From NCBI GenBank assembly GCA_964016885.1, contig OZ024740.1, positions 169,322,001 through 169,386,000 on the forward strand: DNA of 64,000 bases, given 5' to 3'. Source of the stretch: Eledone cirrhosa. Lineage: Eukaryota. Of the stretch, positions 17,914 to 19,669 are shown piece by piece (position 1 is the first letter of the stretch; every line of letters starts with the position of its first letter). The translations under genes and the position numbers were made by a program. Under the pieces are notes generated by a model. It saw nothing but the letters and a program-made list of their open reading frames with translations. It was not told where the DNA came from and did not search any database.

Positions 17914-17958
<45 letters not shown>

Positions 17959-18133
17959 AATACAATATCGGAGAAAGCTTTTTATCGATACTCCGGCCAA
18001 ATTCCAACTCACTCAACAAACATTAGGAAATAAGTGATTATATTCCCAATTATGTGTTCGGGGTGCTAACTAAAAGTATTGCGTGGAAAATTGGCTGTAT
18101 TATTTCAAATGAGACATATCTAATATATCTCTT

Positions 18134-18260
18134 CCCAGACGGACGTCTCGTTTCATTATAGGACTCCTACAATTTGGGTGAAATTATACCATTTTATGTA
18201 GGAGCTTGTATACCATTAATAGATATATATTCAAGTGGGCTCCTATAATTCATCAGTGGG
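18134..18260 (-). ncRNA. Type I hammerhead ribozyme with large loop II
   Basis: CCCA-CUGAUGA-AUUAUAGGA...UCCUAUAAU-GAAA-CGAGACGUCCG-UC-UGGG: canonical core, 9-bp stem II, palindromic GACGUC in stem III. Confidence 0.85.
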
Positions 18261-18840
18261 TGCCCCAATAATACTAATATTGATAATCTAACCAACATCA
18301 GCATTTAGCGATAATTACTTTCTGTGCCTGAGGTATCTGTCAGGTAGCCAGTCCAGCAGTTCTGAAAGAAGTGCTCGAACTGATTCAAAAAATGAGGAAG
18401 TGAATTATCGCCCCCAAAAAAACAATACATGCGCGTGACAATGAACTCTGAAAGGAATTCAGGCCACGTGCTAAGAACTCAATTGGAAATTGAAAAAATA
18501 TCTGTGTGTACAACATTTGATGACACACACAGATATTTTCTCGGGCAAAATAACAGAATGAGATATAAGGAAAAATCAATATTCATATATAAAAAATAAA
18601 CAAAGAAATGCAAACCTTATACCGGAAATTTCTTTCAAATCTGCTGCGCCAAGAGTAAGTAAATAAATACAATATCGGAGAAAGCTTTTTATCGATACTC
18701 CGGCCAAATTCCAACTCACTCAACAAACATTAGGAAATAAGTGATTATATTCCCAATTATGTGTTCGGGGTGCTAACTAAAAGCATTGCGTGGAAAATTG
18801 GCTGTATTATTTCAAATGAGACATATCTAATATATCTTTT

Positions 18841-18967
18841 CTCAGACGGACGTCTCGTTTCATTATAGGACTCCTATAATTTGGGTGAAATTATACCAAT
18901 TTATATAGGAGCTTGTATACCATTAATAGATATATATTCAAGTGGGCTCCTATAATTCATCAGTGGG
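18841..18967 (-). ncRNA. Type I hammerhead ribozyme, second unit (one stem I mismatch)
   Basis: Same fold as 18134-18260, but the stem I 3' strand is UGAG instead of UGGG. Confidence 0.75.
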
Positions 18968-19669
18968 TGCCCCAATAATACTAATATTGATAATCTAACC
19001 AACATCAGCATTTAGCGATAATCACTTTCTGTGCCTGAGGTATCTGTCTGGTAGCCAGTCCAGCAGTTCTGAAAGAAGTGCTCGAACTGATTCAAAAAAT
19101 GAGTGAATTACCGCCCAAAAAACAATACATGCGCGTGACAATGAACTCTGAAAGGGATTCAGGCCACGTGCTAAGAACTCAATTGGAAATTGAAAAAATA
19201 TCTATGTGTGTACAACATTTGATGACACACACATATTTTCTCGGGCAAAATAACAGAATGAGATATAAGGAACAATCAATATTCATATATAAAAAATAAA
19301 CAAAGAAATGCTAACCTTATACCGGGAATTTTTTTCAAATCTGCTGCGCCAAGAGTAAGTAAATAAATACAATATCGGAGAAAGCTTTTTATCGATACTC
19401 CGGCCAAATTCTAACTCCCTCAACAAACATTAGGAAATAAGTGATTATATTCCCAATTATGTGTTCGGGGTGCTAACTAAAAGTATTGCGTGGAAAATTG
19501 GCTGTATTATTTCAAATGAGACATATCTAATATATCTCTTCCCAGACGGACGTCTCGTTTCATTATAGGACTCCTACAATTTGGGTGAAATTATACCAAT
19601 TTATGTAGGAGCTTGTATACCATCAATAGATATATATTCAAGTGGGCTCCTATAATTCTATATATATAT

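Follow-up and report, generated by a model that had tools for sequence, protein, structure and literature searches.

A young, dispersed retrozyme-type repeat family in Eledone cirrhosa with a predicted branched hammerhead and a pile-up of genomic ends at its predicted cut site

The array at 17955–19658 of the window (the whole stretch of 64,000 nucleotides that was analysed, from contig OZ024740.1 of Eledone cirrhosa) is very probably a single insertion of a tandem repeat that encodes no protein, occurs dispersed in the genome and carries a predicted type I hammerhead. The repeat is likely a non-autonomous Penelope-like element (an animal non-LTR retrozyme), copied in trans by a Penelope-like reverse transcriptase (RT)/endonuclease. 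Its family is real and young, of the retrozyme type, and belongs to a larger superfamily of non-autonomous elements. The element class is known and the size is not exceptional; new are the fold and the statistics of the insertion ends.

Results and discussion

Layout of the array

Tandem starts at 17955, 18662 and 19362 delimit units of 707, 700 and 297 bp, reproducing the 2.4 units and the coordinates given in an earlier note on this DNA; the third copy indeed stops at 19658 inside the core, with the break falling within CUGAUGA. The GC content is 35% and the longest ATG frame encodes 66 aa, so the array is low in GC (< 50%) and ORF-less, and (TA)n runs lie on both of its sides. Its features are as follows.

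17895–17955, no strand: (TA)n target at the fixed RNA 3' end of the element; same context in 82 of 90 insertions
17955–18661, minus: unit 1, 707 bp
17955–18137, minus: 183-nt 3' domain, from the predicted cut to the fixed 3' end; conserved fold whose closing stem ends at the 3' end of the element
18134–18260, minus: predicted type I hammerhead 1; stem I CCCA/UGGG, core CUGAUGA..GAAA, palindromic GACGUC in the stem III loop
18155–18249, minus: predicted branched domain II, 95 nt; stem II, GCCC, hairpin IIa (18235–18205), hairpin IIb (18204–18164)
18237–18265, minus: predicted pseudoknot of GGGC (18265–18262) with GCCC (18240–18237); 98.8% of cells paired, without covariation
18465–18486, minus: block common to the sister families outside the ribozyme, contains CACGTG
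18662–19361, minus: unit 2, 700 bp; private changes include a double change in the hairpin (18877, 18905) and a mismatch in stem I
18841–18967, minus: predicted hammerhead 2, stem I mismatched
19362–19658, minus: unit 3, 297 bp, 5'-truncated within the hammerhead core, with a short TA run next to it

Unit 1 would be the first one reverse-transcribed, and the 183-nt 3' domain would likely act as the signal for RT recognition and initiation. The CACGTG-containing block is a possible candidate for a promoter or protein site.

An arginine-rich Kunitz-domain gene occupies 15800–16336 (+) of the window. Its last exon (16181–16336; PF00014 match, E 2.4e-12) ends 1,620 bp from the array on the opposite strand, in keeping with the ∼ 1.6 kb and the antisense ribozyme strand noted earlier. 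This neighbourhood looks incidental, given the dispersal of the family and the further insertions located between gene and array. A link of the array to the adjacent Hydra-type ORF at 20303–21355 was considered and rejected, since TA runs divide the two as separate insertions.

Predicted hammerhead and its fold

Both minus-strand hammerheads of the earlier note were located. The order on this strand is CCCA, CUGAUGA, stem II, a 77-nt interior, GAAA, stem III and GUC followed by UGGG, with the predicted cut between GUC and UGGG (between 18138 and 18137), 183 nt from the fixed 3' end. Stem II has 9 bp with A-U as the first pair, and stem III has 3 bp with the loop AGACGUC. CUGANGA, GAAA, the UH and stems I–III in register are all present, the exception being stem I of unit 2, where a C.A mismatch (18841 region) had been overlooked; unit 2 therefore fails a strict motif scan that detects unit 1, and hammerhead 2 is probably weakened. 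One type I hammerhead in tandem repeat units is the arrangement of animal non-LTR retrozymes.

The description 'canonical' holds for the core and not for the whole ribozyme, and the Rfam hammerhead models give zero matches to the array, even at E ≤ 5. The hairpin described in loop II is present, but domain II contains two hairpins rather than one. The predicted pairing of GGGC with GCCC is invariant across our alignment, i.e. conserved without covariation. It was said to share its topology, with unrelated sequence, with a pseudoknot in the 591/585 families, and the same topology is predicted there with GAGGU/ACCUC. The predicted pseudoknot is thus supported by conservation and by the recurrence of its topology, in other letters, in the unrelated families at 54948–56050 and of 591 bp. 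The 4-bp pseudoknot would likely substitute for the usual loop–loop contact, a role that pseudoknots commonly take in hammerheads as described in passages of PMC3088659 and PMC10085705.

Cleavage may proceed as a dimer through the palindromic loop III; since stem III has 3 bp, monomer cleavage is plausible as well. Lunse et al. (2017) is reportedly to be named alongside the dimer-cleaving hammerheads. Folded as a circle, the cut-to-cut monomer reaches −200 kcal/mol (z = −6.7 against 40 shuffles).

Sister families and covariation

Sister families with ∼ 68–73% identity were found in flanks, with units of ∼ 743, 767 and 980–998 bp (1,406 and 2,167 exact motif matches, > 2,000 units) and the same 3' end at TA. 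Loci of these families are L046:242–1245, L161, L184, L121 and L123; L287 and L293 belong to a further, intermediate sister family, and in the ∼ 990-bp type the conserved CACGTG-containing block is duplicated internally.

Covariation was scored on 20 hand-picked family representatives with a structure set by hand (stem I, stem II, hairpin IIa, hairpin IIb, stem III and pseudoknot, 39 pairs). Pairing was found in 94.4% of cells, a measure that overcounts events because the representatives are related sequences, and 11 of the 39 pairs show a two-sided change. None of 500 shuffles reached this level and slid controls gave 35–51%. Across families loop III switches between palindromes only (GACGUC, AAUU, GAUC). 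In the 183-nt 3' domain two-sided changes occur in 10 of 48 predicted pairs (14 sequences). These comparisons support selection on RNA structure between the sister families and, with it, the predicted 95-nt branched domain II.

The unit-2 double change does not carry this claim

The earlier note had seen selection on RNA structure in the array itself, where units 1 and 3 have CUCCUACA/UGUAGGAG in the hairpin and unit 2 has CUCCUAUA/UAUAGGAG. The letters and the double compensatory change are present as described, and selection is borne out by the covariation between sister families, but not by this change. Of 535 exact pattern matches genome-wide, only the one in unit 2 has it; the single change on one side occurs in one further copy genome-wide, and that on the other side in 4 among the first 100 of 533 matches. 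By chance, 0.04–0.08 doubles are expected at that one pair, a figure that leaves dozens of other pairs uncounted. Both changes are transitions of the C-to-T type, and unit 2 carries several further private transitions. We therefore rejected the double change as a selection signal: it was chosen after viewing many pairs, it lies in a unit with a broken stem I, and it is confined to a single inserted copy that was never selected as a template. Units would decay neutrally once inserted, which would account for the private changes of unit 2. Template switching within hairpin DNA is another possible source of such a double change.

A dispersed family with one fixed end

Searching the 3.0 Gb genome with one unit gave 2,304 first-look candidates and, among the 40 that were scored, 87 matches on many contigs; full units share 91–97% identity. 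A 35-mer of the ribozyme has 535 exact matches genome-wide, hence at least 535 units carry the hammerhead. The many dispersed copies are monomers and short multimers, as is typical of animal retrozymes. The family is independent of the 591-bp and 54948–56050 families, as had been proposed (best blastn E 0.14, not significant). Its unit, described as 'even larger', is unremarkable beside sister units of 743–998 bp and the range of 51–972 bp in a preprint (10.64898/2026.07.22.740005).

Insertion ends were analysed at 155 loci, mostly top matches. After dropping 2 edge-cut rows, 105 non-edge rows remained, 13 of which were short sister-family matches and were also dropped, leaving 92 family insertions. 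The insertion starts at unit position ≤ 6 in 90 of these, and in 82 of the 90 TA adjoins, which is the insertion into microsatellite or AT-rich targets expected of Penelope-like elements. A subsample in genome order gave the same picture, with starts at position ≤ 4 in 23 of 25 insertions, lengths of 225–1,292 bp and more than one unit in 9 of the 25. Read on the ribozyme strand, the insertions have one fixed 3' end, scattered 5' ends (5' truncation) and partial tandems. Rows diverge from the column majority by a median of 1.75% (n = 126), from which we conclude that the family is young. Variants shared within the family avoid the ribozyme weakly (9/134 versus 69/573 sites, p = 0.09).

The unit-to-unit junction is identical in 29 of 36 cases across chromosomes, the others differing by 1–2 substitutions, and adjacent units of an array are concordant at 463 of 500 subfamily sites (37 discordant versus 147 expected). 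The tandems were thus templated by one RNA and not built locally, and local DNA duplication was rejected as the origin of the arrays. One locus, L206, shows a later duplication at the DNA level. Searches for octopus together with retrozyme, Penelope and hammerhead, and for mechanism and structure, with subscription papers, Repbase and preprint supplements outside their scope, returned no description of the family.

Genomic 5' ends at the predicted cut

A run-off scan with the 23-mer ending at the predicted cut gave 399 exact matches. Twenty of these diverge within four bases of the cut: 15 end exactly there (14 solo 183-bp fragments and one after a full unit), 3 end 1–2 bases further on, and in the remaining 2 an internal deletion begins at the cut. 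Against the 15 exact ends, ∼ 1 is expected (background 0.24% per base, from 25 insertions). Three of the 18 run-offs end at a second cut, the first having already been passed. Some 95% of copies cross the cut site, without an indel in 109 of 110 passages.

Sister families show 25 end matches at the cut versus 7 at a control, whose prefix covers fewer copies (19 versus 31 of 70). Of the sister matches at the cut, 12 were inspected and are mostly truncations into TA, with one internal insertion, one likely internal deletion and one inverted joint at the cut that accounts for two matches. Two of six control sites within the family are hot spots as well. One, at unit position 69, has ∼ 13–15 truncations in a TA-friendly 4-nt window; the other, at position 157, has ∼ 13, all on a variant that creates ATAT and partly in other subfamilies. 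A control with the same CCCA ending has 2 truncations versus 13 comparable ones at the cut. The three further controls have 0 truncations each; two of them are weak (prefix in 3/30 and 7/30 sampled loci), and the pattern of the third matched 18 point mutants and no truncation. The last nine bases before the cut have no likeness to TA, and stalling at stem I would put the end ahead of CCCA; for these two reasons we consider it probable that the pile-up records cleavage in vivo.

The internal deletions of L192 and L205 and the inverted joint L271/L272 begin at, or one base from, the predicted cut, which suggests template jumps that set out from the end of a cleaved RNA. As the main route, a switch from one RNA molecule to another at the cut is disfavoured, since variants are linked across it (p 1e-5 to 1e-12, four site pairs).

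Mechanism, helper and alternative explanations

In the mechanism that we prefer for this non-autonomous element, the minus strand would be transcribed, a helper enzyme would nick (TA)n, and its RT would initiate internally on the RNA, at the base of the 183-nt 3' domain, and continue until it falls off, giving 0.1 to several units. That ∼ 95% of passes cross the cut argues for a template that would mostly be a religated circle or an uncut multimer, and the ∼ 4–5% that stop there are what self-cleaved linear RNA would be expected to give. Precedent for much of this exists: a Penelope-like protein nicks DNA that is rich in AT and initiates reverse transcription from a fixed site within its RNA, and the hammerhead is not needed in vitro (PMC11167929).

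Candidates for the helper abound. The genome holds ∼ 40,000 Hydra-type RT candidates with open frames of up to 816 aa, and Hydra- and Neptune-type fragments are abundant, clade names that we assign from motifs. The RWR/DKT motifs used in the naming are given in parts of PMC8557442. Autonomous Penelope-like copies in this genome have the same layout of ORF, hammerhead, tail and (TA)n, with different ribozymes; Pfam gave no match on the Penelope-like fragments. A cognate autonomous element was sought by tblastn with seven Penelope-like peptides of the window and was found in none of the 155 loci or the 70 sister-family loci screened. None of the terminal repeats (pLTRs) of 13 autonomous fragments shares the ribozyme of the family. 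Read cover in two runs of unrecorded kind falls off from the 3' end, a pattern that carries no information on expression.

It is a serious possibility, if slightly the less probable one, that the same element and helper use only uncut linear read-through transcripts of partial-tandem copies as templates, with no part for circles and with cleavage dispensable; as a sub-mechanism this is compatible with our preferred explanation. In the anole element, hammerhead mutants left insertion in vitro unaffected and the main substrate was unprocessed RNA (PMC11167929). Within arrays, the two copies of positions 1–183 can differ at subfamily sites (L025, L043 and L079 at two sites each, also L150, L203 and L028), the minor allele lying mostly in the first copy, and in the window 262C>T is found in units 1 and 2 and absent from unit 3. 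These mosaics argue against a pure monomer circle and, together with the 3 of 18 run-offs at the second cut, favour linear templates. On the other hand, the units of one array are far more concordant than unrelated copies, arrays of more than one unit are common, and circles accumulate for known animal retrozymes (in parts of PMC7229834).

That the unit is instead the pLTR of an ORF-bearing Penelope-like element, and the arrays truncated or locally duplicated ends of it, is improbable. The layout does resemble the pLTRs of autonomous copies in this genome, some arrays (L206) show duplication patterns at the DNA level, and the loci searched are top matches or first-listed places only. However, a unit's 5' end is followed by the next unit through one junction common to many chromosomes, and the longest frame is short. 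At five sister-family loci with an upstream sense Penelope-like ORF, read by eye, TA runs and other sequence intervene between ORF and repeat. The terminal repeat of an ORF-bearing element, duplicated locally, which the earlier note had named as one possible refutation, was looked for and not found in the loci screened. We think it slightly more improbable still that a LINE (CR1/L2- or RTE-type) moves a ribozyme-bearing SINE-like element: long-frame LINEs do lie within the window and 5' truncation is common to all target-primed elements, but the 3' end here is internal to a tandem template and has no poly(A) or simple-repeat tail of its own, and parts of PMC8557442 give partial tandems, inverted joints (here L271/L272) and type I hammerheads as features of Penelope-like elements. 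Least probable of all, and very much so, is a satellite-like DNA repeat with an inert hammerhead relic that spreads at the DNA level. Of 120 ribozyme-spanning units 30 fail a filter on core and stems, as a relic might, yet the fixed 3' end with 5' truncation, the TA targeting and the covariation in both ribozyme and 3' domain all speak against it.

Beyond the preferred explanation of a helper-copied retrozyme, a bolder account can be given, which we hold to be unlikely as a whole. The superfamily would consist of long-lived, purely non-autonomous RNA parasites with units of 700–1,000 nt, copy numbers in the thousands and no cognate pLTR that has survived. They would possess a branched and pseudoknotted hammerhead of a new kind and an RT-priming domain of their own; rolling-circle reverse transcription, primed internally on religated circles, would make ∼ 95% of copies, and ∼ 5% would run off a self-cleaved 5' end. 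If true, this would be in vivo evidence for hammerhead cleavage and circularisation within Penelope-type transposition. In the sole in vitro system for that process the hammerhead is dispensable (PMC11167929). Because priming in this family occurs at a fixed site, with the predicted cut at a distance of 183 nt, and because dated insertions number in the thousands, the question of the template becomes answerable by counting ends in one genome.

Other elements in the window

The 591-bp family forms a tandem and inverted array at 31680–33799 with 100% identical copies and TA runs around it, and this is an insertion of very recent date. Its hammerhead has the U3-A8 core variant UUGAUAA, a predicted GAGGU/ACCUC pseudoknot and a palindromic loop III. 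A related inverted element at 54948–56050 likewise has the UUGAUAA core, GAGGU/ACCUC and the loop III UGUACA. Six more hammerhead motifs stand shortly before TA runs, at 1213 (−), 30965 (−), 39671 (−), 42648 (+), 49215 (+) and 54548 (−); those at 39671 and 42648 are an inverted pair flanking a Hydra-type ORF. The sole Rfam hammerhead match in the window is HH9 at 30912–30983 (38.6 bits, below threshold). A short palindromic element with facing CUGAUGA on both strands, followed by a TA run, was seen in the 49009–49060 region and in L235. Other elements are a LINE at 8065–11292 (+) with an open 1,075-aa endonuclease-RT frame and an ORF1-like frame upstream, an RT-bearing LINE with a PHD finger at 36791–39056 (−), and a fragmented Helitron at 45427–52505 (+). 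The branched domain II of our family escapes Rfam, which suggests that such elements are probably undercounted.

Comparison with known systems

A plant LTR retrozyme (type III hammerhead in LTRs, with PBS and PPT) was rejected, the hammerhead here being of type I in tandem units with a fixed internal end. Closest are the animal non-LTR retrozymes, which, in the parts of PMC7229834 and 10.64898/2026.07.22.740005 drawn on here, are likewise tandem, low-GC, ORF-less units with one type I hammerhead each, dispersed as monomers and short multimers beside Penelope-like elements. At 707 bp the unit lies within the 51–972 bp of the preprint (Li, Clavereau and Pollet 2026), parts of which relate retrozymes to Penelope-like pLTRs, and above the 150–450 bp given in a part of Cervera and de la Pena 2020 (PMC7229834). 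Unlike those retrozymes, the family has a predicted 95-nt branched domain II and a predicted pseudoknot. As set out in sections of PMC7229834, animal retrozymes self-cleave, accumulate as circles and are proposed to be copied by Penelope-like enzymes, the circle-templated cycle being still a hypothesis there. For Xenopus, sections of the preprint (10.64898/2026.07.22.740005) report that 24 of 57 families matched known elements, whereas a cognate pLTR was not found here in the loci screened, and that 1 of 9 predicted retrozymes cleaved.

With the Penelope-like elements (Poseidon of Anolis, PMC11167929; Neptune, Hydra, Naiad and Chlamys, in parts of PMC8557442) the family shares insertions that are partial tandems truncated at the 5' end, an RT start at a fixed point within the RNA, downstream of the hammerhead, insertion into (TA)n or AT-rich sequence, and occasional inverted joints. 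In contrast to them it lacks an RT/GIY-YIG ORF and has a 183-nt tail. According to passages of PMC8557442, the pLTRs of non-autonomous Chlamys elements are arrayed head to tail, and microsatellites are commonly targeted. In the anole element no RNA-seq reads begin or end at the hammerhead cut (PMC11167929), whereas here genomic ends pile up there.

Among the pseudoknotted hammerheads of Perreault et al. 2011 (PMC3088659, in part), the pseudoknot likewise joins the stem I and stem II sides (∼ 40% of their representatives), stems III are weak and U-U at 10.1-11.1 is tolerated, as in sister family B here; the portions of that paper drawn on describe no stem II with two further hairpins, and the Rfam models miss the present ribozyme. 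The dimer-cleaving hammerheads of newts, axolotl and Penelope-like elements (parts of PMC7229834) have a similarly short stem III and a loop whose sequence differs between families but is palindromic in each, but the predicted stem III of 3 bp sets the present ribozyme apart, in that it would plausibly also cleave as a monomer.
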